A stretch of 64,000 bases of DNA from an uncultured Gemmatimonadales bacterium (GTDB lineage: Bacteria; Gemmatimonadota; Gemmatimonadetes; Gemmatimonadales; GWC2-71-9): assembly GCA_963705985.1 (NCBI GenBank), contig CAVPLK010000002.1:39855-103854 (forward strand). The letters run 5' to 3'. Positions 7,351 to 64,000 of this stretch are shown here, piece by piece. The translations under genes and the position numbers were made by a program. Under the pieces are notes generated by a model, which saw only the letters and a program-made list of their open reading frames with translations, was not told the origin of the DNA and ran no database searches. Position 1 is the stretch's first letter, and each line of letters starts with the position of its first letter.

Positions 7351-9109
7351 GCCCGCCTCGCCCAGTATTCAGTGGTCCTGCTCGCCTGCGCTGCGTCCGC
7401 CGCGCCGGCGCCCTCCCCTGTGCCCGTCCCCGTCTCCGCTTCCACCGTGCCGGTACCGCCGCCGATCGATCCGACCCAGCGCCTGCTCGACAGTCTCCCG
7501 CTCCGGGCCAAGGTCGGCCAGCTGGTGATGCCGTGGATACCGGGCACCTATACCGCGGACGACGACCCGGGGTTTCTCCGGGCGCAAGCGTGGGTGGATT
7601 CCCTGCAAGTCGGCGGGATCATCGTCTCGATCGGCTCGCCGCTCGATATCGCCGCCCGGCTGAACTCCCTGCAACAGCACGCTGGCATCCCGCTCCTCAT
7701 CGCGTCCGACCTCGAGGGCGGGACGGCGATGCGCTTCAATGGCGGCACCGCCTTCCCCACCAATATGGGGGTGGCCGCCACCGGCCGGGAGTCGGACGCG
7801 TACGACATGGGCCGGATCACCGCGGTCGAGGGGCGCGCCGTCGGCATCCACCTGGTCTTCGCGCCCGTGGCCGACGTCAACAACAACGCCGCCAATCCGA
7901 TCATCAACACCCGTTCCTTCGGCGGCGACCCCTCCGCCGTTGCGGCCCTCGTTTCCGCCGAGGTGCGCGGGCTCCAGGACAACGGGATGCTGGCCACCGC
8001 GAAGCATTTCCCGGGGCACGGAGACACCGGCACCGACACCCACATCGAGCTTCCCGGTCATCGACGCGCCGTGGAGCCGGCTCGACTCGGTCGAACTGGT
8101 CCCCTTCCGGGCCGCCATCAAGAGCGGTGTGGCCGCCGTCATGTCCGCGCACATCGCGCTGCCCGGGGTCGACAGCGGCAAGGTGCGCCCCGCCACCCTG
8201 ACCCCCACCCTCCTGACCGGCGTGCTGCGCGACTCCCTCGACTTCAAGGGGCTCGTGGTCACCGATGCCCTCGACATGGGCGGCATCGTGAGGACCTATG
8301 GACCGGGGGAGGCGGCCGTGCTCGCGCTGCTCGCCGGCGCCGACCTCCTCCTGCAGCCGCCCGACGCCGGTGTCGCCATCGACGCGGTGGTGGCCGCCGT
8401 CGAGCAGGGCCGGATCAGCCGGGCGCGGCTCGACGAATCGGTGCGGCGCGTCCTCGAGATGAAGCGGCGGGTCGGCCTCTTCAAGCGGCGGGGCGTGGCC
8501 CTCGACCGCGTGATGGGCCGGGTCGGCACCGCGGAACACCAGGCGGCGGCGCGCGACGTGACCGCCCGCTCGCTGGTCCTGGTCCGGGACAGCGGCGCGG
8601 TGGTGGCGACGCTCCGCGCGACCCCGCAGCCGATCTCCCTCCTGACCTACGCCGACGACCCGTCGAGTACCCTCGGCGTCTCGCTGGCCGGTTCGCTGCG
8701 CGCCGCGGGGTACACCGTCACCACCTACCGGCTCTGGCCATCGAGCGGGCCCGCCAGCTACGACTCCGCGCGCGCGGCCCTCGCCGCCTCGCCGGTCGCC
8801 GTGGTGGCGGCATCGATCCGGGTGAGCGCCTGGAGCGGCACCATCAGCCTCCCGCCCCTCGTGGCGGAGCTGGTCAACGCCACCGCCGCGGCCCAGCCGA
8901 CGGTCCTCGTCTCGTTCGGCTCGCCCTACCTGCTGACGCAGGCGCCTGGCGTGCAGGGGTACCTCCTCGCATGGGCGGCCCGCCCCATCAACGAACAGGC
9001 GGTCGCGGCGGCGCTCACCGGCACCGCGGACATCGGCGGACGGTTGCCCATCGCGCTCGATTCCAGCACACCGATCGGAACCGGGCTCCACCTCGGAGCC
9101 ACCCACTGA
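7342..9109 (+). pseudogene. nagZ: Glycoside hydrolase family 3 beta-N-acetylhexosaminidase (two-domain NagZ-like lipoprotein), frameshifted as sequenced near 8056
   Basis: Frame 1 carries a signal/lipobox (VVLLAC) and the GH3 blocks ASDLEGG and KHFPGHGDTGTDTHIELP. The family continues in frame 2 as VIDAPWSRLDSVELVPF...VVTDALDMGG up to the stop at 9109. One extra base within CCCGG (8053-8057) separates the two frames. Confidence 0.85.
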
Positions 9110-10293
9110 AGCCGAGCACGGCCGGGGCGGCCCTGCTCCTGGCCCTGCTCGGTTGTGCCCCACGGATCGCGCCCGGGCCGGTCCCGCTGTACAACAAACC
9201 AGACTGGAAACCGCTTCGGCACTTCCTCGACAGTGCCGTCGCCGCAGAGGCCGCCCCCGGGATCGTCGTCGCCGTGAGCTGGGCGGGGCATCGCTACATC
9301 TACGGCACCGGGCATCTTGGCGACGGCATCCGCCGCCGCCCCAATCACGAGACGGTCTACGACCTCGCGTCGCTCACCAAGGTGGTCGGACTGACCACCG
9401 CGATGATGTGGGCGGTGGACGAAGGGCGGATCGAGCTCGATGCCCCGATCACGCAGTACGTCCCGGCCTTCGAGGGAACCGACGCCGAATGCGTCACGAT
9501 GCGCCTCCTGCTGGCCCACGCGAGCGGCCTCCCCCCGTGGCGACCTCTCTACCTGCTCGGTTACAGCCGCCCCGCCGTCTTCGCCGTCGCCGACTCCACC
9601 GTGCTCGACACGCTTCCCGGCTCGCGGTTCGCCTACTCCGACATCGGCGCCATTCTCCTGACGCAGGCCATCGAGACGGCATATGCCGAGCGAATCGACT
9701 CCCTCCTGACACGCCGGTTGTTCGTTCCCCTCGGCATGCGCTCGACCACCTTCAACCCGCCCGCCACCTGGCTGCCGCGGGTCGCGCCCACCGAGTTCGA
9801 CTCCCTGCGGAACCGGATCGTCCGGGGGCAGGTGCACGACGAGAACGCCTGGCGGATGGATGGGGTGTCGGGGCACGCCGGGATCTTCTCCACCGGAGAC
9901 GACCTGCTGGCCTTCGGGGAGTGGTGGATTGCCCAGAATCGGGGGACGGTCCCCCCGCCGGGCCAGCCGACGGTGACCGATTCGCTGCTGCGGGCCTTCA
10001 CGGTGCCCCAGGACCTCCCGCCCGGATCCACCCGGGCACTCGGCTGGGAGACCCCGACCGCGGACAATACCGGCAGCGGGTTCCTCTCCGCCGGGAGTGT
10101 GGGGCATACCGGGTTCACGGGGACCAGTCTCTGGATGGACCCGGAGCGCGGGGTGGTGATCGTGGTCCTCTCCAACCGGGTGCATCCGACCCGGGCGAAC
10201 GGGCGGTTCGCCGGCGTGCGCCGCGGGGTCGGCGACCTGGTGCTGACCGCCCTCGACCCACGACTGCAAACGACTGCATCGGCCGCGCGTTGA
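9106..10293 (+). CDS. Serine hydrolase of the beta-lactamase family (AmiE-like; possible MurNAc-L-Ala amidase), lipoprotein
   Basis: SxxK motif in DLASLTKVVG and an HTG box in VGHTGFTGTS. The N-terminus KPSTAGAALLLALLGC is a lipoprotein signal. No ATG, GTG or TTG is available in frame. The best start is CTG at 9106, overlapping the nagZ stop (CTGA), with GGAG 7 nt upstream. Confidence 0.8.
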   Translation: MKPSTAGAALLLALLGCAPRIAPGPVPLYNKPDWKPLRHFLDSAVAAEAAPGIVVAVSWAGHRYIYGTGHLGDGIRRRPNHETVYDLASLTKVVGLTTAMMWAVDEGRIELDAPITQYVPAFEGTDAECVTMRLLLAHASGLPPWRPLYLLGYSRPAVFAVADSTVLDTLPGSRFAYSDIGAILLTQAIETAYAERIDSLLTRRLFVPLGMRSTTFNPPATWLPRVAPTEFDSLRNRIVRGQVHDENAWRMDGVSGHAGIFSTGDDLLAFGEWWIAQNRGTVPPPGQPTVTDSLLRAFTVPQDLPPGSTRALGWETPTADNTGSGFLSAGSVGHTGFTGTSLWMDPERGVVIVVLSNRVHPTRANGRFAGVRRGVGDLVLTALDPRLQTTASAAR

Positions 10294-14839: not shown

Positions 14840-15769
14840 CTATTTCGATGGGAGAGTAAAGGTCATCGTCGCCACTCCAGGCACGGCCACGCCCTCGGTG
14901 TTCCGCGCGGGCTTGAACCGGTAGGTCTCGGCGCGCTCCGCAAACCGGGCGGCGAATTCGCGATCGTCGATCTTCGGTTCGGTCTCGACCCGGGCCACCC
15001 GGCCGTCGGCCCGGACGTGGAAGGTGACGCGGAGGGTCTGCCCCCGCAGCTCCTTGGGTGGCTTCTCGAAGAAGAATGTCCCGTAGGTCCACTGTGGCTC
15101 GCGGCCCGACCCGCCGCCGCCCCCGCCGCCACTGCCGGGCCCGCTCCCCGCGCCGGTGCCGGTCCCCACCCCGCCGCCGGAGCCGCCCCCACTCCCGCCA
15201 CCGCTGCCAGGCCCCGATCCCGGGCCTCCGCTCCCTGCGCCGGGCGCCGTCACGCTATCCACCGACGACGCGACCACCGTCGGGGTGGGTTGGGTATCGG
15301 CTGGCACAGGGGTCGGCGCGACGACGTCAGGTGGCACCACTTCGGGCGGGGGAACGGCGAGCTGTTCCGCCGGGGCCGACACAGCGGGAGGCTGCAACGG
15401 CGGGAGCGAAATATACCGGACCCTCTGGCCCCCGCCACCCCCACCACCACCGCCGCCGGGTGCCAGCGAAGGGTTGCCCGCCGCGGGCGTCTGGATGAAC
15501 GTGTCGACAGCGCCCCGGATGATCAGGACGAGGATCGCCGCATGGAACAGCAGCGAGACCGCGGCCCCGACGAGGGAGCGCAGATCACGCTGGCGTTCCA
15601 GCAGCGGGTGCGGGGGGAGAGGGGTCTGGCTCACGGCTCCATGATACACCCGACGGGCGTCGACACCACCGCCAGAGGCGGGGGCCGGCGCCCGTCGAAT
15701 TGGGCTGAAGATGTTGGCGACACCGGCATCCGGGAGACGTCCGGGAGGCCTGGGTGCCGCACCACTCAC
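14840..15769 (-). CDS. TonB-family energy transducer-like protein with long Gly/Pro-rich linker
   Basis: One TM segment (LVGAAVSLLFHAAILVLII), Pro-rich and (GGS)n spacers, and a TonB-C-like end (TLRVTFHVRADGRVARVE...RFKPARNTEGVAVPGVATMTFTL). The start is uncertain; GTG at 15634 or 15649 are alternatives. Confidence 0.7.
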   Translation of the reverse strand: MSGAAPRPPGRLPDAGVANIFSPIRRAPAPASGGGVDARRVYHGAVSQTPLPPHPLLERQRDLRSLVGAAVSLLFHAAILVLIIRGAVDTFIQTPAAGNPSLAPGGGGGGGGGGQRVRYISLPPLQPPAVSAPAEQLAVPPPEVVPPDVVAPTPVPADTQPTPTVVASSVDSVTAPGAGSGGPGSGPGSGGGSGGGSGGGVGTGTGAGSGPGSGGGGGGGSGREPQWTYGTFFFEKPPKELRGQTLRVTFHVRADGRVARVETEPKIDDREFAARFAERAETYRFKPARNTEGVAVPGVATMTFTLPSK

Positions 15770-17437: not shown

Positions 17438-18130
17438 CTACGGATTAAACGAGACCGCCTGCTGGACCTGCACGCGCACCGCCTGCCCGCGCACCCTGCC
17501 GGGCCGGAAGACGCTCTTCATGATCATTTCCCTGGCCGGCTCGTTGAACGCCGCATTCGTGGTGCTGATGACGCGGAACCCGGCCGATTCGGGATGACCG
17601 GTGGTATCGATGACGAACGACGCGACCACCCGGCCACCGATGCCGGCCCGCTCGAGGACCGGCGGGTAGCGGCGGGGACCAGCGGAAATCAGGTCCGGCG
17701 GATCGTCCACCTGGGCCTCGAGATAGGTCTCGCCGGTCACGGGGCCGGTGCCGCCGACCACGCCGACCGCCACGCCACCCTGCACGCCGGTGCCGGTGAA
17801 GTCCTTGGGGTCGAACCGCTCGTTCAGGTTGATCGGCGGGATTTCCGTGGGGATGTCCTGCACGGCGACCACCGTCTGGAACCCGCGCGGCGGCGGATTG
17901 GCACTCACGATGGCGTCCGGCGGCGGGGCCTCGGGCGGCGGCGCCTCGGGCTTGGGAGGCGCCAGGAACACCAGCGTGGTGTCCGCCAGCCGCTCCCGCA
18001 CGACCTCGGCCGCGCCGGTCGTGGCGATGACGGCACCCGTGATCAGAATGGCGTGCAGGACGACCGAGACCACGAACTGGCCGGCGGTGCGCTGCTTTGC
18101 GGGCTTGGATTCGACCAGAACCTCGAACAC
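17438..18130 (-). CDS. tonB: Energy transducer TonB
   Basis: N-terminal anchor (VVSVVLHAILITGAVI), a PPKPEAPPPEAPPP spacer and a TonB C-terminal domain (YPPVLERAGIGGRVVASFVIDTTG). The preferred start is GTG at 18130, preceded by GGAGG (the track ORF starts at 18205). Confidence 0.82.
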   Translation of the reverse strand: MFEVLVESKPAKQRTAGQFVVSVVLHAILITGAVIATTGAAEVVRERLADTTLVFLAPPKPEAPPPEAPPPDAIVSANPPPRGFQTVVAVQDIPTEIPPINLNERFDPKDFTGTGVQGGVAVGVVGGTGPVTGETYLEAQVDDPPDLISAGPRRYPPVLERAGIGGRVVASFVIDTTGHPESAGFRVISTTNAAFNEPAREMIMKSVFRPGRVRGQAVRVQVQQAVSFNP

Positions 18131-18237
18131 GGTCCTACCTCCGTGGTGAGTCAGGCGTGTGGTGCAACCTACGCAACCCGCCTTGCCTCCGTGTGGCCCT
18201 TGCATGACAAATCGATAACAACGGAATGAGAAGTCCC

Positions 18238-18261
18238 GTCACCCCGGCCAGCCGGGGACGG
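18238..18261. repeat. Single copy of the GTCACCCCGGC..GCCGGGGAC hairpin module
   Basis: GTCACCCCGGCCAGCCGGGGAC lies just downstream of the kinase stop (minus strand). It may double as a terminator. Confidence 0.7.
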
Positions 18262-18269
18262 TCGTGAAC

Positions 18270-19730
18270 TTACCCCGCAGCGGCCCCGCCGCCACCCCCC
18301 GCCCGGGGCAAGGTCACCACGAAGCTCGACCCCCGCCCCGGCCGGCTCTGCACCGCGAGGGTCCCGCCGTGCGCCTCGGCGATCCACTTCGTGATGGCGA
18401 GCCCCAGCCCGACGCCGGGACGGTCGCCGGTGCGGGACCGCGCCGGGTCGGCGCGCCAGAACCGGTCGAAAATATGGGGCAGGTCCACTGACGCGATGCC
18501 AATCCCGGTGTCCCGCACCACCAGCCGGACGTCGTCCCCCTCGTCGTCGAGCACCACCGAGACCGACCCCCCTGCCGGCGTGTACTTGACGGCGTTGGTG
18601 ACGAGGTTGAGCAGCAATTGCTGCATCCGGTGCAGGTCGACCTGCACCTCCACGGCGTGCTCGGGCACCACCACCTGGGTGGTCAGCCCATGCTGCTCAG
18701 CCAGCATCCCCGCCGTCTCGCCCACATCGACCACCAGGGCGCGGAGGTCCCTCACTTCCAGCGCCAGCGGCGCCCGGCCCTCGTCCGCACGGGCCAGCAT
18801 CAGCAGGCTGTCGACCAGTTCGTTGAGCTGGTTCAACTGCCCCAGCGTGGTGTCCAGCGCCTCGAGCACCTCCGGTGGGGTCCCTGGGTGGACCAGCGAC
18901 CGCTCCACCCCGGCGCGCAACACCGTCAGCGGCGTCTTGAGTTCGTGGCTCGCGTCGGCCGTGAACCGGCGCAACTGGCTGAAGCTCTGTTCCAGCCGGC
19001 TGAACATCGCGTTCAGGGTGACGGCCAGCCGGGCGAGCTCGTCGCCGGAGGTCGGCACCGCCACCCGGCGGTGGAGGCTTCGGCCGTCTGTGACCTCCTG
19101 GACTTCGTCCATCAGCCGTTCGACCGGGCGCATGGCCCGCCCCGCCAGGAACCAGCCGAGCACGGCGGAGGCGAGGAGAATCAGCGGCACCACGAGCACC
19201 ATCGACTGGACGAGGTCGGCGGGCCCGAACGCGACGGCGGACAGCGGGGCGGCCACGATGACCGCCCCGACCTCGGTGCCCGCTCCATCGACGGGCAGCG
19301 CTGCGTACCGCATCGGTTCTTCGCCCGCGGGGAGGACGGTGGTGCCGATGGACGAACCGACCGGTGCGGGACCGGCCAGCGCCACCAGGCGCTCAATCGC
19401 CGCAAAATTGAGCTGTCGGACGGGATCGTTCAGGTAGAGGGTGCGCCCCGCCCGGTTGAAGACGAGGAGGAGGTCGCGTACGCCCTCGAAGTTGGCGGCC
19501 ACCCCCGGCTGGATTTCCTGCGGGTCGTCCGGTCGGAGCACCGTGGAGAGCACCTGGTAGGATTCGTTCAGCCAGCGGCGGGCGAAGTCGGCCTCGAGCG
19601 CGAGTCGCTGGTCGAGTTCGCGCACGCTCGACTGCCGGCGCTCGAGATAGAGGGCGGTGCCGAAGACCAGCACCGTCGCCGTCAGGGCGACGGTGTACCA
19701 GAAGGTGAGGCGCCCGCGAATGGTGTTCAC
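18270..19730 (-). CDS. Sensor histidine kinase (two TM segments, HAMP, HisKA, HATPase_c)
   Basis: H-box ASHELKTPLT, N-box LLNLVTNAVKYT, and G-boxes DTGIGI and GVGLGLAI. The GTG start at 19730 overlaps the regulator stop (GTGA). The upstream 270 aa of the 759-aa track ORF are an out-of-frame overlap with the regulator gene. Confidence 0.88.
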   Translation of the reverse strand: MNTIRGRLTFWYTVALTATVLVFGTALYLERRQSSVRELDQRLALEADFARRWLNESYQVLSTVLRPDDPQEIQPGVAANFEGVRDLLLVFNRAGRTLYLNDPVRQLNFAAIERLVALAGPAPVGSSIGTTVLPAGEEPMRYAALPVDGAGTEVGAVIVAAPLSAVAFGPADLVQSMVLVVPLILLASAVLGWFLAGRAMRPVERLMDEVQEVTDGRSLHRRVAVPTSGDELARLAVTLNAMFSRLEQSFSQLRRFTADASHELKTPLTVLRAGVERSLVHPGTPPEVLEALDTTLGQLNQLNELVDSLLMLARADEGRAPLALEVRDLRALVVDVGETAGMLAEQHGLTTQVVVPEHAVEVQVDLHRMQQLLLNLVTNAVKYTPAGGSVSVVLDDEGDDVRLVVRDTGIGIASVDLPHIFDRFWRADPARSRTGDRPGVGLGLAITKWIAEAHGGTLAVQSRPGRGSSFVVTLPRAGGGGGAAAG

Positions 19731-57783: not shown

Positions 57784-57840
57784 GCGGGGGTCAAGCCGGA
57801 GTCCAGGTTTTCTGGTGCCGCCCTGCCCCCCTGCCCCGCC
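57784..57840. repeat. Degenerate hairpin module plus C-rich (GCTGCCCC-type) tract
   Basis: GCCGCCCTGCCCCCCTGCCCCGCC at 57818-57840. Confidence 0.65.
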
Positions 57841-58556
57841 TACATCAGCCCGAGCTTCCTGAGTCCTCCGGCGTCCACTCGGCGCGGGCCGCCGTCGAGG
57901 CCGTAGACCACGGCCTTGGCTTCTCCGATCAGTGACAGGTCGCTGCCTTCCAGCCGGAGTCCGGTGCCCTCAGGCAGGCCGACCACCGGCATGCCGGGGT
58001 TGGCGTGGGCGAACTCATTCAGCCGGTCCACCCGGGTCTCGCCGCCGTGGTCGCCGAGGCGGGCTTCGGTGTAGTGAGCGTTGATCTGGAAGGGGATCAG
58101 GCTCAGCGCCGACAGTCCTGGTGGTTCGACGATCGGCATGTCGTTGGTGGTACGGATGGTGGGACAGGCCACGTTGGAACCGGCGCTCCAGCCGATGTAG
58201 GGCATCCCGTTGCGTGCCGCGGCACGGATGGCGTCGAGCAGGCCGGTGTCGTACATCTGCGCGAGGAGCTGAAAGGTGTTGCCGCCCCCGACGGCGACCG
58301 CGTCCGAATCGGCCAGTGCGGCCACCGGATCGTCAGGCTCGTGGGCGCCCACCACCTCGTAACCGAGCGCGCCGAACACCTCGCGCACCGCCTCGGTGTA
58401 CTCGTCCCAGGGCTTGGTCACGCCGGCATACGGCACAAAGAGCACCCGGCACACCGAAGAGCCCAGGAAATCGTGGATGTGCGCCCGGGCCCAGGCGAGA
58501 TAGCCCTGACCGGGGAGCATGGAGTTGCTGAGCAGGAGAAGGCGGGGGTCGGGCAC
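57840..58556 (-). CDS. pepE: Peptidase S51, dipeptidase E-like
   Basis: PRLLLLSNSMLPGQGYLAWA... and GGNTFQLL, with the nucleophile context IGWSAGSN. GTG at 58556 is preceded by GAGGA (the track ORF starts at 58652). Confidence 0.8.
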   Translation of the reverse strand: MPDPRLLLLSNSMLPGQGYLAWARAHIHDFLGSSVCRVLFVPYAGVTKPWDEYTEAVREVFGALGYEVVGAHEPDDPVAALADSDAVAVGGGNTFQLLAQMYDTGLLDAIRAAARNGMPYIGWSAGSNVACPTIRTTNDMPIVEPPGLSALSLIPFQINAHYTEARLGDHGGETRVDRLNEFAHANPGMPVVGLPEGTGLRLEGSDLSLIGEAKAVVYGLDGGPRRVDAGGLRKLGLM

Positions 58557-58675
58557 AGTGTCCTCGGTGGTGCGGGTGGGGGCAGCGACTGAGGATAGCC
58601 TTTCAAGGCCCGGTGTGGGAAGGACGAGGCATGAGGAACTCTGTGTTGGCACCTCAATCTGTGCACGCCGGGAAC

Positions 58676-59203
58676 CTACCCGCCTGCTGGCCGTTGAAAT
58701 CCGATCTGTTTCGCTGGCTTGGCATTTTCGTGAAGGAGTGCGCGGATCGCATCAAACACAGCCCTGAACTGCTGGTCGTACCGGGCCTCCATCGCATCGA
58801 GCTTCCGGGCCAACTCGGCGTGGGTCCCCAGTGCGACCCGCAGCTTCACAAAGGCCCGAACCACCTGCACACTCGTCTCCACGGCCACCTGGCTCTTGAG
58901 CACACTGGCCAGCATCACCGCGCCGTGCTCGGTGAAGGCCATAGGCACATGTCGACGCCCGCCCCACGCCCCACTTGAGGTCGCAATTTGCGACCTCAAG
59001 TTGGCGGCTTCCTCCGGCGTCAGTTGGAACGCAAAGTCGCCCGGAAATCGCGCCCGGTTCCGCCTGACCTGCTCCTTGAGCCGCTTGGTCGTTACGCCGT
59101 AGAGTGCGGCCAGGTCGGAGTCCAGCATCACCCGGTGCCCTCGCACCTCCCGGATCAGGCTGGCTACTCCCTCGACCACCACCGGATTCTCACTCTCGGG
59201 CAT
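58676..59203 (-). CDS. ORF6N (KilA-N-related) domain DNA-binding protein
   Basis: IREVRGHRVMLDSDLAALYGVTTKRLKEQVRRNRARFPGDFAFQLT...HVPMAFTEHGAVMLASVL matches the ORF6N family pattern. Confidence 0.8.
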   Translation of the reverse strand: MPESENPVVVEGVASLIREVRGHRVMLDSDLAALYGVTTKRLKEQVRRNRARFPGDFAFQLTPEEAANLRSQIATSSGAWGGRRHVPMAFTEHGAVMLASVLKSQVAVETSVQVVRAFVKLRVALGTHAELARKLDAMEARYDQQFRAVFDAIRALLHENAKPAKQIGFQRPAGG

Positions 59204-59312
59204 CTCACCCCCGCCTCGCTCGGTGGGAATGAAGGATGGCTCGCGTGTTCAGGAACCCAGTCATCCAAATCCTGCGAGCTAGACCCCGCAATCGCGAGGG
59301 TGAGAGGAAGGA

Positions 59313-59339
59313 CTGGACCCACGCTTTCGCGGGGGTGAC
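59313..59339. repeat. Inverted, slightly degenerate copy of the GTCACCCCCGC gaaa GCGTGGGTCCAG hairpin module
   Basis: CTGGACCCACGCTTTCGCGGGGGTGAC. Confidence 0.75.
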
Positions 59340-59523
59340 GGCCATGCAGAAAGCCCCACCGCAGAAGTCGCAGTGAGGCAGTGAGTTACTGAGCGGAGCG
59401 GAGAGCGCGGGGTCGGGGGGGAGCGACCGTCTGGGGCCGACTTGCAAAACCATCGGGCTCCGGGGCTGGCGGCTCGTAACGTAACTCTTAGGATACAGGC
59501 TCACCACAAACCGAGGGGTTCCA

Positions 59524-59877
59524 ATGCGCTATGTCGACAGCTTTGTCCTGCCGATCCCCACCAAGAACCTCAAGAAGTACCTGGGCATGGCACGGCTGGG
59601 GAAGCGGCTGTGGATGAAGCACGGCGCGCTCGCCTACATGGAGTGCGTCGGAGACGATCTCAAGAACGCGTGGGGCGCCACCTTTCCCAAACAGATGAAG
59701 CTGAAGCCGCGCGAGTCGGTGATTGTCGCCTATATCGTGTTCAAGTCCCGGGCCCATCGCGATCGAGTCAACGCCAAGGTGATGAAGGAGCTGATGGGCG
59801 ACGGCGTCGAAATGGAGATGCCGTTCGATCCGAGGCGTGGGTTGTACGGCGGGTTCAAGGTGATCGTGGGGAGTTGA
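59524..59877 (+). CDS. DUF1428 family protein (second paralog)
   Basis: MRYVDSFVLPIPTKNLKKYL...KSRAHRDRVNAKVMKE. Confidence 0.85.
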   Translation: MRYVDSFVLPIPTKNLKKYLGMARLGKRLWMKHGALAYMECVGDDLKNAWGATFPKQMKLKPRESVIVAYIVFKSRAHRDRVNAKVMKELMGDGVEMEMPFDPRRGLYGGFKVIVGS

Positions 59878-59994
59878 GGGGGGGGCTGAGTTGATCTTCG
59901 GGCAGTGAGATCGGATATGGTAAGGCGACAGGCGAAGCCGGCATTCTTGCCCTTGGCACGAGCACCCATCCCGCAAGTCCCCCACGGAGGTCCC

Positions 59995-60942
59995 GTGCGA
60001 GCGACAATCTTGGCCTGCCTCCTATTGGTAACGGCGACCCCTGCGGCGCCCCAGGCCTCCCGGGTCCCCCTGCGCAAGGGAGATCGCGTCTACCTGCGAG
60101 TCCCCCTTCACGAGTTCCACCACGTCCCCACCAAGTTCCGGCTCTGGCTCGCTGAAGCGGCAGTCAGGGATTCGGTCGTGGTGGTCAATGGCGATCCGAA
60201 CTGGCAAAGCTCCGGCTTCCTCTACCCGAACGCGGTGCGCGTGTCTGACATCAGGATCGATGCGCGCAATCACCTCTGGCGTGCTCGATTTGCCCGCGGG
60301 CGGGAGCCTGACCTTACGCTTACGGTGCCCCTTTCGGATACCGCCGCTGTGATCCCCCGATTGGTCGCCGACTCCGCCGACTCCGCTGCGGTCGTCGCAG
60401 AATCCTACGCCGCCATCGGGCGGCGCATCTTCCCGGGAGCCGCTGACTCGCTGCCCGCTCCCATTCTGAGTCGACTCCTGGGCGTCATCGACTCCCTCCT
60501 GGGGGGCGACTCGCTTCGCCTCGTCGACTTCCAGGGCGTGCCGTACGTCGAGATCCCGGCGCCGTCGCCTGAAGGAGTCTACGTCTACTCGAACCTGCCA
60601 CCGCCCCGGCAACGTGGTGCGGTGATGAACAAGCTGGTCATTCCGATCGTCTGCCATCTCGGGCGTGCCGACACGAGTTTGCCCCGATCGCTCCGGTTCA
60701 GCATTCCGGTTCGAGTGACGGTGTACGACTACGTCCCGACGGGGATCGTGGTCGCAGACCTGTTGCTCGGAACGGGAGCCACGACGTCACGTGGGAAGCC
60801 GGCGTATCAGGACGTGACCTTCTACTTTGACGGAGAACTGGCCTCTCGGTTTGCCGCTGGTGCCATTTCGAGCCAGGAGCTGGTGGATCAGTCCGTGGCG
60901 ATCCTGAAGGGCAGTTATGTGGGGGTGGACCTCTCCCAATAG
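59995..60942 (+). CDS. Hypothetical secreted protein
   Basis: GGAGG lies 4 nt upstream of the GTG at 59995. The signal peptide is VRATILACLLLVTATPAAPQAS. About 315 aa with no family I recognise. Confidence 0.55.
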   Translation: MRATILACLLLVTATPAAPQASRVPLRKGDRVYLRVPLHEFHHVPTKFRLWLAEAAVRDSVVVVNGDPNWQSSGFLYPNAVRVSDIRIDARNHLWRARFARGREPDLTLTVPLSDTAAVIPRLVADSADSAAVVAESYAAIGRRIFPGAADSLPAPILSRLLGVIDSLLGGDSLRLVDFQGVPYVEIPAPSPEGVYVYSNLPPPRQRGAVMNKLVIPIVCHLGRADTSLPRSLRFSIPVRVTVYDYVPTGIVVADLLLGTGATTSRGKPAYQDVTFYFDGELASRFAAGAISSQELVDQSVAILKGSYVGVDLSQ

Positions 60943-61056
60943 GGCGTACGCCCATCGCGTGGGTCGTGCCCTGGGGCCCGTTTGGCTGGAATTATCGGAG
61001 GGGGAAGATTTTGCCAAAGTCCCGCAAGGCCTTGGCGCAGCCGAAGGTGAACGAAG

Positions 61057-61098
61057 TGGAGCGGAGGGGGATCGAACCCCTGACCCCCTGCTTGCAAA
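61057..61098 (-). other. 3' fragment of a tRNA-Ala(UGC) gene (anticodon loop to discriminator); putative attachment-site remnant
   Basis: The minus strand reads TTTGCAA (loop, anticodon TGC) GCAGG GGGTC AGGGG TTCGATC CCCCT CCGCTCC A. This gives a perfect T arm, a 5-nt variable loop and a 3' acceptor with U70 (Ala identity). No D arm or 5' acceptor exists upstream (CCAAC replaces CCTGC and the homology stops there). Confidence 0.7.
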
Positions 61099-61174
61099 GT
61101 TGGATCGTAAGTCATTGTCCTGCAACAACTTGTAGCACTCACGCGTCGTTCTGGGCATCGGTGTTGTGAGTCGG

Positions 61175-61199
61175 GGGCCCGAAAGGGCCCTTTTGTTGT
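61175..61199 (+). terminator. Rho-independent terminator-like hairpin
   Basis: GGGCCC gaaa GGGCCC (a perfect 6-bp GC stem) followed by TTTTGTTGT. Confidence 0.6.
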
Positions 61200-61205
61200 C
61201 CTGGA

Positions 61206-61636
61206 CACACAACAAAACACACAACAGGGGCCGATTTCGGCTGAAATCGTGGTTCGTTCGCCACATTCCATTTGCAGGCCGGAAGAAGAATTCCGCAACG
61301 ACTGCCAGTGCAGTTAACTTGTTGTCTTGTCTAGCGTTACTGGTCACTTCAGCGCCCCTCCATTTCACCCAACTCACAACAGACTCACAACGGTTACCCC
61401 CTTTGGATTTCGTAAGCAGGGGGTCGAGCTGATTCCAATAACTGAAGGCAGGGGGTCAGCGGTTTGATCTGAACTCACAACAGAAAGCCTGGTTCTCCCG
61501 CACCAACTCATGACAGAAGGGCTACTCCGCCGCCCGAACTCACAACAAATACGCAACGCTGATTCCATTTCGCCGAGGAAAGCAGGGGGTCCGAGGAAGG
61601 CAGGGGGTCGGAATGTTTGAGTTGGGCTCGCAACAG
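61206..61636 (+). repeat. Phased array of short direct repeats C(T/A)CACAACA(G/A), with companion motifs GCAGGGGGTC (x4) and GCTGATTCCA (x2)
   Basis: Direct copies start at 61206, 61218, 61372, 61383, 61473, 61506 (degenerate), 61538 and 61627 (CTCGCAACAG). Inverted copies are at 61163-61171 and 61618-61624. GCAGGGGGTC is at 61416, 61448, 61582 and 61600. GCTGATTCCA is at 61428 and 61558. The hairpin GATTTC ggct GAAATC is at 61233-61248. Confidence 0.75.
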
Positions 61637-61773
61637 GGACGCCTGCCGAGGTATTTTGGACCTGAGGGCGGTATCGTGGAAAACTGGGAAATCCCCACCA
61701 CGCGTTCACGATGGCAGCCCAACGGACGTTCGTCCGGGCGTATCTGAGTCTTGTACTGACCCTGGAGTAAGAC

Positions 61774-62157
61774 ATGGCCCCGCGTCGCACAGTGCTATTG
61801 CTTCTTCCACTCGCGGTGCTGGCGATCGCGGCTTGTGCTTCCGGCTCCGCCATCGTTACAGGCGACACGAGGCCAGCGGTCCCTCAGGAGCAAGTGAAGA
61901 TCTATCTCGAACCACCAGACACGTTCGAGGTGATTGGCCTCGTCAGTGCATCCAGCGACGCCGGATGGACGGATCAAGGATCACTGAACTATGCGATTGC
62001 AGAGTTGAAGAAGCAGGCTGCGAAGCTTGGAGCGAATGGAGTGCTCATAGTCGCCACTGGCGAGACGACGACAGGTGTTGTTAATGGGAAGTACTATTCC
62101 ATCCCTGTCACCGCGAAGACCGTTCAAGGCAAGGCCATCTTCGTCAAAGAGCAGTAG
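61774..62157 (+). CDS. Small lipoprotein (127 aa), cassette-like ORF 1
   Basis: GGAG lies 7 nt upstream of the ATG. The signal and lipobox are MAPRRTVLLLLPLAVLAIAAC. The C-terminal part (AIAELKKQAAKLGANGVLIV) resembles the small DUF4156/YbjQ-like lipoprotein fold families; this is inference. Confidence 0.65.
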   Translation: MAPRRTVLLLLPLAVLAIAACASGSAIVTGDTRPAVPQEQVKIYLEPPDTFEVIGLVSASSDAGWTDQGSLNYAIAELKKQAAKLGANGVLIVATGETTTGVVNGKYYSIPVTAKTVQGKAIFVKEQ

Positions 62158-62225
62158 GCAGTGACGTCAAAGGTGCGGTCTTACCAGCACGTGCAGCTGC
62201 GGAGTACGCGCTGGCTCTGGCGGCC

Positions 62226-62318
62226 GCCGCACCGTAGGTTCTAACTGAGGGCGACGCGGCGGCTGCCACGCAGCGCCCTCGCAGCTGATACGCCAGTCGG
62301 TAGGCAGCTCAGTTCACA
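62226..62318 (+). repeat. attC-like GC-rich imperfect palindrome, copy 1
   Basis: GCCGCAC..AGGTTCTAACTGAGGGCGACGCGGCGGCTGCCACGCAGCGCCCTCGCAGCTGATACGCCAGTCGGTAGGCAGCTCAGTTCACA. GAGGGCG (62247-53) pairs with CGCCCTC (62274-80). It is alignable to copies 2 and 3. Confidence 0.45.
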
Positions 62319-62336
62319 TCTTCGTGCAGGCGGCCA

Positions 62337-63251
62337 GTGGACCTTTCCCAGGTGTTTCAGCTCTTCAGCCGGCGCCAAGCGCCAGCGGTCAAAGGCCTCA
62401 AGACGCTCACCGAAGAATTCCGGAATAGAGTTCTGATGAGGGTGCGCGACACATTTGGACACTCGGGATACGATCTTCACCTTTGGACGGAGGTTCATCA
62501 GAAACTCACCTACTTGGTCGGAAAGCTAAGCCTCACTGGCATTCCGGCCTCTCAAGGCCACCAGGTGGACGTGCTGCGATTCCTCGCGACCTGCTCAGAT
62601 GCCCATTTCCTAGATTTTATCGAGGCGGTGTTTCAGACTAGCGCGATCGATCGCATCACCAATACCGCCCAGCTGGCGCTGGTCCGTGATATCAACACAT
62701 TCTTCAGCATCGACGATCTACCATACGCCCTCACCGATTTCGTCTGGGTGACTGGCACATCCGTCGTCCACGGCTCTACCCACACGGTGATGACCCGGAC
62801 CGCCATTCCGCAGGTTCTCTTGAAGGAGTCTGGCTCCATTCACGAGACCATCGTCAAACCGGTACTTGAACTGATCGCCGACCCGCGCTTCAGTGTCGTG
62901 AACACCGAGTACAGGGAGGCGTTGCAGGACTATCGCAAATTGGACTATGGGGATTGCCTTACCAAGTGCGGGAGTGCCTTCGAGAGCACACTCAAGGTGA
63001 TCTGCAGCGCCAATAGGTGGCCCTTTTCACCAAACGACACTGCTGCGCCACTGCTCAAGACAGTTGTCTCGAGGTCAAGCCTCGATGGGTATTTTGAACA
63101 GCCGTTAATGTTGATCGCAACGGTCCGGAACCGCTTGAGCAAGTCTCACGGCGGTGGGACCGTCCCTCGGGAGGCAGAAAAGCACGTCGCTGAATGGGCC
63201 ATGAACGCAACGGGTGCTGCCATCCTATTGCTGGTCCAAGAATGTTTGTAA
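62337..63251 (+). CDS. AbiJ-like abortive-infection protein (AbiJ N-terminal domain + C-terminal HEPN-type RNase domain)
   Basis: The N-terminus VFQLFSRRQ...LTEEFRNRVLMRVRDTF matches the AbiJ N-terminal pattern (FS-x-R ... LRNRLW). The C-terminus has the HEPN R-x4-6-H signature in ATVRNRLSKSHGGG, preceded by a conserved acidic helix (GSAFESTLKVI). Confidence 0.6.
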   Translation: MDLSQVFQLFSRRQAPAVKGLKTLTEEFRNRVLMRVRDTFGHSGYDLHLWTEVHQKLTYLVGKLSLTGIPASQGHQVDVLRFLATCSDAHFLDFIEAVFQTSAIDRITNTAQLALVRDINTFFSIDDLPYALTDFVWVTGTSVVHGSTHTVMTRTAIPQVLLKESGSIHETIVKPVLELIADPRFSVVNTEYREALQDYRKLDYGDCLTKCGSAFESTLKVICSANRWPFSPNDTAAPLLKTVVSRSSLDGYFEQPLMLIATVRNRLSKSHGGGTVPREAEKHVAEWAMNATGAAILLLVQECL

Positions 63252-63265
63252 TCGCTAATGGAGCC

Positions 63266-63352
63266 GCCGAACCAGCGCATGCAGGTGACGAGGGCGCATG
63301 TCTTGCGGCCGCGCCGCCGGCGCCCTCGCCGCTGATGCGCGTTTCGTTAGGC
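63266..63352 (+). repeat. attC-like GC-rich imperfect palindrome, copy 2 (best preserved, 87 bp)
   Basis: It begins GCCGAAC (63266-72; compare R'' RYYYAAC) and ends GTTAGGC (63346-52; R' GTTRRRY); these are complementary at 6 of 7 positions. The arms CAGCGCATGCAGGTGACGAGGGCG and CGCCCTCGCCGCTGATGCGCG pair with bulges. Confidence 0.5.
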
Positions 63353-63395
63353 CGCCCGCGTCAGATGTAATTTCATCTCGCCATTGGGAACCCGA

Positions 63396-63917
63396 ATGCC
63401 CAGGAAACATGCGTTATCGCAATACCACTGTGGCGTGGCGGCGGAAGCGTTTGCAGCCGGCTTGCTGGCGCGGTGCGGCTGCGACGTACTGGTGCAATAC
63501 GGCGCCAATCAGCCCGAATACGACCTCGTGGCAAAGCGTGCACAGCAGGCTCTATGGATCTCGGTAAAGGGTAGCCAGGACGGCGGCTGGGGCTTAACCC
63601 AGTCGTTCAAGAAACCAGGCGTGTCGTACGCTGAGGCCGCCAAGGCGTGGGCTGCGAAGCATGATCCGCGAATCATTATGTGCTTTGTGCAGTTCAAAGA
63701 CGTGGCAATCGACGCATGTCCCGAAGTCTATCTGGCACCAATCGGGGACGTAGCGAAGCAGATGGTCAAAGCGCGGAACGGCCTCGGAGATACCACGATC
63801 CAGACATTCCACACTTGGGCCACTGGCCAATGTGCAGGTTGGACTGACGCGATCCCTTCCTCCTGGAGTTTCTCTGCCAAACGGCTTGATCAGATGTTTG
63901 AATGGGCGGCGGCCTAG
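63396..63917 (+). CDS. PD-(D/E)xK nuclease-fold protein (hypothetical)
   Basis: The order of elements is AAEAFAAGLL (helix with Glu), EYDLVA (Asp strand), then WISVKGS (S-x-K strand). This is the classic restriction-endonuclease-like core. The start is ATG 63396 (TTG 63384 is possible). Confidence 0.5.
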   Translation: MPRKHALSQYHCGVAAEAFAAGLLARCGCDVLVQYGANQPEYDLVAKRAQQALWISVKGSQDGGWGLTQSFKKPGVSYAEAAKAWAAKHDPRIIMCFVQFKDVAIDACPEVYLAPIGDVAKQMVKARNGLGDTTIQTFHTWATGQCAGWTDAIPSSWSFSAKRLDQMFEWAAA

Positions 63918-63940
63918 CCAGCGCATACCGCTGGCAAGGG

Positions 63941-64000
63941 CGCGCTGGCTTGGGCGGACGCCACGCCTTAGGTTGTGAACTGAGGATGCCGCGGCGGCTG
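63941..64000 (+). repeat. attC-like element, copy 3 (left arm only; truncated by the window end)
   Basis: GCGCTGGCTTGGGCGGACGCCACGCCTTAGGTTGTGAACTGAGGATGCCGCGGCGGCTG aligns base-for-base with the left arm of copy 1. TGTGAAC (63974-80) is the exact reverse complement of GTTCACA at 62312-18. Confidence 0.45.

Follow-up and report, generated by a model that had tools for sequence, protein, structure and literature searches.

The stretch of DNA analysed here, hereafter called the window, comprises 64,000 nucleotides (nt) of a contig from an uncultured Gemmatimonadales bacterium, and its guanine-cytosine content falls from ~68% to ~57% at about position 61000. At this point lies the displaced 3′ half of a tRNA-Ala(TGC) gene (61057-61099, minus strand), reaching from the anticodon loop to the acceptor end and discriminator base, and beyond it follow a repeat-rich stretch and a group of cargo genes. 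With its ~580 bp, the repeat-rich stretch opens a mobile genomic island that has integrated in the tRNA-Ala gene. It is likely that this stretch, from 61100 to ~61680, represents the long P arm of an attachment (att) site of the attR type, in which the repeated motif CTCACAAC(A/G) is predicted to be the arm-type site of the lambda-like tyrosine integrase of the island. The features of the tRNA fragment and of the arm are the following, S1 to S8 denoting copies of the motif and signed numbers denoting distances in bp from the overlap.

61057-61099, minus strand: 3′ half of tRNA-Ala(TGC), core of the att site, identified by its identity to an intact gene (L001), a covariance-model match and the same junction in L017, L032 and L040
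61082-61091, within the tRNA fragment: core half-site GACCCCCTGC, which reads GCAGGGGGTC on the tRNA strand
61092-61098, within the tRNA fragment: overlap TTGCAAA
61147-61175, no strand assigned: invariant block GTTCTGGGCATCGGTGTTGTGAGTCGG with site S1, from the cross-subfamily alignment
61163-61170, minus strand: S1, the sole inverted copy (CTCACAAC on the minus strand), ~70 bp from the overlap
61173-61199, plus strand: intrinsic-terminator-like hairpin GGGGGCCCGAAAGGGCCC followed by TTTTGTTGT, from a terminator scan
61204-61227, plus strand: tandem pair S2/S3 (61206 and 61218), two copies of CACACAAC 12 nt apart, at about -114/-126
61371-61393, plus strand: tandem pair S4/S5 (61373 and 61384), two copies of CTCACAAC 11 nt apart, at -282/-292
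61396-61425, no strand assigned: imperfect inverted repeat (ACCCCCT...AGGGGGT) that has the first core-like copy of GCAGGGGGTC (61416-61425) at its end
61448-61457, plus strand: second core-like copy of GCAGGGGGTC, from an inverted-repeat search
61470-61557, plus strand: ~33-nt tandem array whose units each hold one motif (S6 at 61474, S7, the degenerate CTCATGAC, at 61507, S8 at 61539)
61550, plus strand: weak motif copy TACGCAAC
61573-61609, plus strand: 18-nt tandem duplication with core-like copies three and four (GCAGGGGGTC at 61582 and 61600)
61621-61680, plus strand: distal end of the arm, with GTTGGGC at 61621-61627 and a non-conserved motif copy CTCGCAAC at 61627

The exact decamer C(T/A)CACAACA(G/A) occurs five times in the window, always on the plus strand (61206, 61218, 61373, 61474, and 61539), against an expectation of 0.19 per 64 kb obtained from shuffled sequences, and none of 100 shuffles reached five. 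When one mismatch is allowed in the 8-mer core CTCACAAC, eight sites are found within 61163-61634, seven of them direct (61206, 61218, 61373, 61384, 61474, 61539, and 61627) and one inverted (61163), and the remaining 61 kb of the window holds scattered one-mismatch matches only, at or below chance. An initial annotation, made from the letters of the sequence, had listed eight direct and two inverted decamers in this region. The cluster itself stands, but its size has to be corrected to five exact decamers or seven direct CTCACAAC sites with at most one mismatch, since an eighth direct copy requires counting the degenerate CTCATGAC at 61507 (two mismatches); of the two inverted copies, the one at 61163-61170 is convincing and the second is not. 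The spacings of 12, 11, 33, 32, 90, and 88 nt were read correctly, but the helical phasing proposed for them does not hold for the intervals of 88-90 nt, which correspond to ~8.5 turns.

The other repeats named in that annotation were all recovered. The sequence GCAGGGGGTC occurs four times on the plus strand (61416, 61448, 61582, and 61600), GCTGATTCCA occurs twice (61428 and 61558), and two long units of ~60-110 nt exist that are 71% identical to each other. A fifth copy of GCAGGGGGTC had been missed, and it lies at 61082 on the minus strand, inside the tRNA fragment. This sequence is the anticodon-stem/variable-loop sequence of the tRNA, that is, the core half-site; the four copies in the arm are oriented opposite to the copy in the tRNA fragment, and the second of them, taken with its flanks (61443-61469), is 85% complementary to the fragment. 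The terminator scan likewise retrieved the predicted hairpin, at 61173-61192 and followed by a T-run. The arm had been described as lacking a credible open reading frame (ORF), and this agrees with the comparison of related arms, as the coding reading of an 88-aa ORF at 61166-61432 was ruled out by an indel causing a frameshift in the L032 orthologue.

The junction of the island was defined by comparison with a 1.1-Mb contig of a Gemmatimonadales metagenome-assembled genome (MAG), here L001/L003, which was retrieved via the neighbouring DUF1428 protein. This contig is 98.7% identical to positions 59351-61075 of the window, carries an intact tRNA-Ala at the same place, and continues beyond it without an island into ordinary chromosomal genes, thus representing the empty site. 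The tRNA fragment claimed in the initial annotation was confirmed by this comparison, 61057-61099 matching the 3′ part of the intact L001 tRNA-Ala with 93.7% identity; the same coordinates gave a partial match to a tRNA/tmRNA-type covariance model, and no complete tRNA was found by ARAGORN in the 64-kb window. Identity between the window and the intact gene ends after ...CTTGCAAAG, within the anticodon loop, and the island junction lies between 61099 and 61100, the arm starting one base past the tRNA half. Since the tRNA is cut in the anticodon loop and the intact tRNA occurs without an island in L001/L003, the window holds one end of a tRNA-Ala island. As a general rule, a displaced tRNA fragment marks the island end that is far from the integrase (PMC4383910). 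The core sequence reads CCTGC-TTTGCAA-GCAGGGGGTC, and the arm motif CTCACAAC is distinct from it. When contigs were scanned with the flank protein, the island-free MAG was the only one retrieved, and proteins of the far chromosomal flank (P0001, P0002, and P0067) led only to empty or decayed sites.

Two further observations concern the chromosomal side of the junction. Decayed extra copies of the tRNA 3′ end are present there in the window (60996-61005), in L001 (11522-11551), and in the related locus L040 (18740-18926), where they form an 87-nt tandem repeat of 2.2 copies with ...TCGATCCCC.TCCGCTCCA in each unit; these copies resemble traces left by recurrent integration and excision at the tRNA site. 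In addition, a second strain-variable spot lies just upstream of the shared flank, where the window (57840-59350) carries an S51 peptidase and an ORF6N-domain gene and the matching spot of the near-identical MAG (L001 ~9079-9653) carries a PemK-toxin pair instead.

A pattern scan of metagenomes returned mostly irrelevant AT-rich coding matches, together with five true relatives of the arm. Two of these (L017 and L032) share the junction of the window and are ~90% identical to it over 61070-61427, with different numbers of distal units, and together with L040 and L042 they constitute a set of orthologous arms with the same junction. Another (L022) begins inside the arm and runs into unrelated cargo. 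The last two (L031 and L036) carry a more distant arm beside a fragment of tRNA-Pro(GGG), which is also cut at the anticodon loop. Comparison of the Ala-type with the Pro-type arms showed that 71 of 85 columns in the motif blocks are invariant (84%), compared with 52 of 247 (21%) elsewhere in the arm. Invariant across the subfamilies are the motif blocks, 27 nt surrounding the inverted copy (GTTCTGGGCATCGGTGTTGTGAGTCGG), and GCAGGGGGTCG. For instance, 24 of the 26 scored columns of block GTTCTGGGCATCGGTGTTGTGAGTCGG (61147-61172) are invariant in all five arms of the two subfamilies, with S1 at -68 to -74 from the overlap in every locus. The S2/S3 pair is likewise invariant across subfamilies and equally distant from the overlap in all arms, and the S4/S5 pair is conserved in L017, L032, and L040 and shifted to -235/-245 in L031/L036. 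This footprint shows the motif to be under purifying selection across the subfamilies.

In tRNA-sense coordinates, the resulting motif map comprises one site at ~-70 in tRNA-sense orientation, a pair at ~-112/-124 to -114/-126, a pair at ~-285 (Ala-type) or ~-240 (Pro-type), and, across the core, a pair at +104/+116, with optional distal arrays out to -600; the distances of the P-arm sites are kept in six loci. The proximal sites (S1, S2/S3, and S4/S5) would appear to form the conserved functional set, as judged from their alignment. The distal arrays of 33-nt, 32-nt, and 18-nt units differ in copy number among arms with ~90% identity elsewhere and are probably accessory or dispensable; the 33-nt array, whose copy number differs between loci, is present in 3.5 copies in the orthologous arm of L040. 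The terminator hairpin at 61173-61199 is conserved in L017/L032, and Pro-type arms have a different plus-strand terminator hairpin made from the CAGGGGGTC motif, which forms hairpins of the type GACCCCCTG...CAGGGGGTC. Homology to the L040/L022 arm fades at ~61645-61680, and the cargo thereafter is unrelated.

Searches with the arm in PLSDB and INPHARED (blastn) gave no match, and the conserved 20-mer of block 1 was absent from IMG/VR. A three-copy motif pattern retrieved from IMG/VR solely AT-rich phage contigs (L004-L011), which carry long 12-nt tandem arrays, (CTCACAACTTNG)n, containing the same 8-mer and were judged unrelated; the sharing of this 8-mer is probably a coincidence or due to a coding repeat.

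Complete copies of the element (L040, L041, and L042) were reached from the last gene of L022 by protein search and contig look-up. In these copies and in L056, the order of the full element is tRNA, tyrosine integrase, excisionase-family genes, cargo, arm, and tRNA fragment. The organisation of L040 is as follows.

557-630: intact tRNA-Ala
Strand opposite to the tRNA-Ala: integrase of 411 aa, with PF00589 at residues 202-369
After the integrase: three excisionase-family helix-turn-helix (HTH) genes, a methyltransferase, an SNF2 helicase and an AAA protein
Onward: a sigma-70-region-4-like protein, Mrr, DUF4411 with M78 peptidase, NERD and small ORFs
~17960-18640: long arm, followed by the tRNA fragment

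All eight exact copies of CTCACAAC in the 19 kb of L040 lie in the two arms, seven of them in the long arm, and none was found in the 17-kb interior. The eighth copy is located ~110 bp past the anticodon loop, by the integrase gene and beside a neighbouring CACACAAC. Tandem pairs of the short arm (P′) lie at +104/+116 in L040 and L057 and at +108/+120 in L056. Ten additional loci of 5-21 kb (L046-L055), which carry a 67%-identical integrase, have in the P′ arm one exact copy right after the integrase (int) stop codon and a degenerate neighbour (TTCACACA) at ~+118. Across L046-L055, L056, and L057, the P′ sites lie 104-120 bp from the overlap, with no other exact copy in 5-21 kb. The initial annotation had proposed looking for the decamer at the opposite end of the island as well, and in the complete relatives (L040/L041, L056, and L057) the outcome is positive, a tandem pair lying beside the integrase gene.

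In islands of the L040 type, the reading frame of the integrase runs ~24 codons past the usual C-terminus, over both P′ motif copies (L040 638-712; ...LLTTNTQHAVL...), unlike that of the 387-aa relatives, in which the P′ sites come just after the stop codon. A degenerate arm unit (CGAACACACAAC, 28 nt, GCAGGGGGTCG) was also observed between the NERD and M78-peptidase genes of L040 (~15250-15330, equivalent to L022 2760-2820), and this unit and the arm bracket the arm-proximal four-gene segment. The locus L056 has its own P arm beside a tRNA-Pro fragment, and next to this fragment (683-919) lie the decayed remains of an integrase from an older island in tandem. A pseudogene fragment of this integrase family is also found beside an intact tRNA-Ala at 3150-3240 of L039, a locus of the same species group as the window, indicating that islands of this family undergo tandem accretion and decay.

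At E <= 1e-10, the integrase family comprises over 800 sequences, most of them 387 aa long, and the integrases of the relatives studied, with PF00589, range from 387 to 411 aa. Four lineages have P′ motif sites, and their integrases are 62-100% identical. The 67%-identical integrase of L046-L055 (P0090, 387 aa) is found with identical sequence on at least 77 contigs (98 index blocks), in islands that occupy tRNA-Pro(TGG) genes in three or more chromosomal settings, with cargo that includes czc-type resistance-nodulation-division (RND) efflux, P-type ATPase, and mer genes; this appears to be an actively spreading heavy-metal-resistance island. The 62%-identical integrase (L056) is located at tRNA-Pro(GGG) and a 72%-identical one (L057) at tRNA-Ala. 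Genes of the excisionase family (TIGR01764/HTH_17) adjoin int in L040, L046, L056, and L057.

An AlphaFold model of the integrase, built on a 37-sequence alignment, had a mean predicted local distance difference test (pLDDT) value of 75, with the C-terminal 80 residues poorly modelled. Its N-terminus is predicted to form a four-stranded sheet and a long helix (residues 9-72, pLDDT ~90), followed by a core-binding domain made of helices and a catalytic domain. The best Foldseek matches were XerA and full-length lambda integrase (353-378 columns aligned), and PHROG family 1 (phrog_1, integrase) matched residues 17-368. The model thus supports a three-domain, lambda-like architecture. Conservation within the protein is among the highest in the N-terminal 50 residues, in keeping with a DNA motif that stays constant throughout the integrase family.

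The location of the motif beside the tRNA core, its specificity for both arms, the kept distances, and the purifying selection together support its reading as an arm-type site, and they lend weight to the arm-type att site that was one of the two functions proposed in the initial annotation. Lambda Int is heterobivalent and binds both core and arm sites (PMC9791396). By analogy, the excised circle of the island would join the long arm, the tRNA-derived core, and the short P′ arm by the integrase gene into an attP, in which the anticodon loop would be the overlap and the anticodon stem flanking the 7-nt loop would be the core, with GCAGGGGGTC as half-site. The N-terminal domains of the integrase would occupy the CTCACAAC copies and its C-terminal domains the core, as in lambda (PMC9791396, PMC4880445), and integrases bridging arm and core, with the excisionase-family protein and probably with DNA bending, would assemble the intasome. 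The arm could wrap into integrative and excisive intasomes, the complex setting integration versus excision and the HTH_17 protein setting directionality. The plus-strand terminator would, in the integrated state, stop read-through from the chromosomal gene at 59905-60942 and, in the circular form, read-through from int, which points in the same direction as the arm. As for the distal 33-nt and 18-32-nt units, they are probably either surplus sites or the outcome of replication slippage or serial integration, and the four inverted core-like copies could serve as additional core-domain sites, form terminator stems like those of the Pro-type arms, or have been left behind by serial integration. 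Binding of the integrase to the motif is a prediction, and so is the presence of such an integrase gene in the island of the window itself, presumably beyond base 64000.

Several points weigh against this assignment. The link to the integrase rests on arms in other contigs that are 82-91% identical, as the window stops at 64000. At ~580 bp, and with as many as 10 motif copies, the arm exceeds classical attP arms in length, and the classical model gives no role for the four core-like GCAGGGGGTC copies. The isolated model of the N-terminal domain had no significant match among solved arm-binding domains, and the integrase had no match to the Pfam arm-binding families. Finally, the motif could be bound instead by one of the three excisionase-family/HTH proteins.

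This last point leads to a different assignment within an att arm, in which the motif would be the site of a recombination directionality factor (RDF) or regulator of the excisionase family (HTH_17/MerR-like), the repeats setting directionality or repressing transcription. Three excisionase-family genes adjoin int in L040, and the 11-12-nt pairs of the arm resemble typical RDF sites, in which direct repeats follow each other in tandem at a spacing of about one helical turn; such sites are known for lambda Xis, P2 Cox, and L5 Xis. However, RDF sites normally occupy a single arm, in the interval that separates the core from the arm-type sites, whereas here the motif flanks the core at about ±110. 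The inverted copy at -70 together with the presence of the motif on both sides is the pattern of Int arm-type sites and not of RDF sites, and the motif remains constant across integrases that are 62-100% identical and have a nearly invariant N-terminal domain. An RDF or regulator site is for these reasons considered unlikely, and recognition of the motif by the integrase is preferred.

The remaining alternatives depend in part on what follows the arm, where the window shows the following features.

61774-64000, plus strand: cargo of three ORFs with attC-like imperfect palindromes between and after them
~62178-62305, 63268-63353, and 63938 to the window end: attC-like sites

The ORFs encode a 127-aa lipoprotein-like protein, a 304-aa AbiJ/DUF7014-like protein, and a protein of 173-177 aa without an assigned family. 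They had been called cassette-like in the initial annotation, which missed the genuine attC-like sites that separate them; the bottom strand of the second site folds as a long hairpin (z = -3.0). No tyrosine recombinase signature was found in the 64-kb window, hence no intI there, and the cargo at 61774-64000 is an integron-type cassette array without a nearby intI (cluster of attC sites lacking an integron integrase, CALIN). A further contig of 50-200 kb is recorded as carrying the 173-aa cassette protein as well. AttC-like sites were likewise seen after the first cargo ORFs of related arms, in L031 (1256-1345 and 2005-2075) and L022 (1415-1527), although they fold less convincingly than those of the window; their occurrence in islands of the tRNA-Pro type (L031) and of the L040 type (L022) suggests that cassettes recur beside this arm family. 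The literature searched on integrons at tRNA genes or in Gemmatimonadetes yielded nothing specific.

One explanation that takes these cassettes into account is that the long arm does not serve just as a passive scaffold of the intasome and that its units, each composed of an arm-type site, ~33 nt, and the core-like GCAGGGGGTC, are secondary recombination sites that capture or exchange cargo, including attC cassettes, in which case the arm may be an integron-like acquisition platform run by a non-IntI integrase or by IntI in trans. Hints of this are the unrelated cargo found right after near-identical arms, the attC cassettes that follow arms of two subfamilies, and the degenerate unit inside L040 that brackets a four-gene segment. 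The proposal is nevertheless rated as quite improbable.

Still less probable is an integron attI-like platform, in which the repeats would be accessory integrase sites, like DR1/DR2 of attI1, for the capture of attC cassettes. The attC-type cassettes directly follow the arm in the orientation expected downstream of attI, attC-like sites follow related arms in L022/L040 and L031, a GTTRRRY-type heptamer (GTTGGGC) is located at 61621, and close relatives carry different cargo immediately past the arm. An intI is, however, missing from both the window and the complete relatives, where the sole recombinase, the integrase described above, scores 18 bits against the TIGR02249 integron-integrase model, the cut-off being 265. 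The motif is moreover tied to both arms of the tRNA att site, what comes after the L056 arm is an RHS toxin gene and not cassettes, and arm homology runs 20-55 nt past GTTGGGC, so the heptamer is probably not the junction. The lack of an IntI and this extended homology led to the rejection of attI as the main explanation.

The initial annotation had also offered iterons of a replication or transfer origin, which would be used by the excised circle. The distal 33-nt tandem array, with its one motif per unit, and the uncharacterised HTH proteins of 288-325 aa encoded by the island would fit such a role. However, there is no adjacent replication (Rep) gene, relaxase, or DnaA-box context, and the same motif lies beside int on the other side of the recombination core, only the distal 33-nt array being regular. 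The copy number of this array also varies between near-identical arms, the conserved sites being the non-arrayed proximal ones. Iterons are therefore unsupported and can be given very little credence.

A structured non-coding RNA or a functionless, decayed scar of serial integrations is extremely improbable, for although there is a terminator at 61173-61199, decayed tRNA pieces occur in the arm and the chromosomal flank, and tandem accretion and decay do take place in this island family, no Rfam match reached the gathering score (a permissive scan gave weak sub-threshold matches only), folding z-scores against shuffles were +0.75 and -0.36 for the two strands, and the motif blocks are, unlike pure scars, under strong purifying selection across subfamilies; the scar idea may apply to the variable distal units and the core-like copies.

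With the integrase-bound P arm as the preferred reading, an attachment site and a likely integrase-recognition motif are defined for a widespread, uncharacterised island family, of which no description was found in the literature searched. Its more than 800 integrase relatives occur in soil, sludge, and sediment metagenomes, and it carries genes for defence and heavy-metal resistance, as well as integron cassettes, from one Gemmatimonadota-type bacterium to another via tRNA-Ala and tRNA-Pro genes. The combination of a tRNA half with CTCACAAC pairs at fixed distances provides a simple signature for delimiting such islands in metagenome assemblies, and the motif map is a ready design basis for binding and recombination assays.

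Compared with known systems, the structure is a P arm of the classical kind (lambda, L5, P2, and HP1) and reveals no new mechanism. As in the arms of lambda (P1/P2/P′1-3) and mycobacteriophage L5 (P1-P7), a non-core motif of 8-10 bp is found on both sides of the crossover, with mixed orientation of the copies and often with two of them in tandem at an interval of 10-12 bp; beside int there is an excisionase-family gene, and int adjoins the short arm. In contrast to these systems, the arm measures ~580 bp instead of ~150 bp, it contains extra variable motif arrays and four core half-site copies, and the N-terminal domain of the integrase lacks a Pfam arm-binding match, its binding here being predicted. 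The islands also resemble the tRNA islands of the Islander type (anticodon-loop sublocation class), as the tRNA is split and restored by an island copy beside int, with the displaced 3′ fragment at the far end and symmetric anticodon stem flanks around the overlap. They differ from these in their use of at least tRNA-Ala(TGC), tRNA-Pro(GGG), and tRNA-Pro(TGG), and in their hosts, which are uncultured Gemmatimonadota-type bacteria of soil and sludge; tRNA-Ala(TGC) and tRNA-Pro(GGG) share CAGGGGGTC 3′ of the anticodon loop, a stretch that differs in the tRNA-Pro(TGG) of L046. With attI1 (DR1/DR2), the arm has in common its position upstream of an attC array in the correct orientation and its repeated short motifs; however, there is no integron integrase, the cassette junction is apparently not located at a conserved GTT, and the repeats belong to the att site of another integrase.

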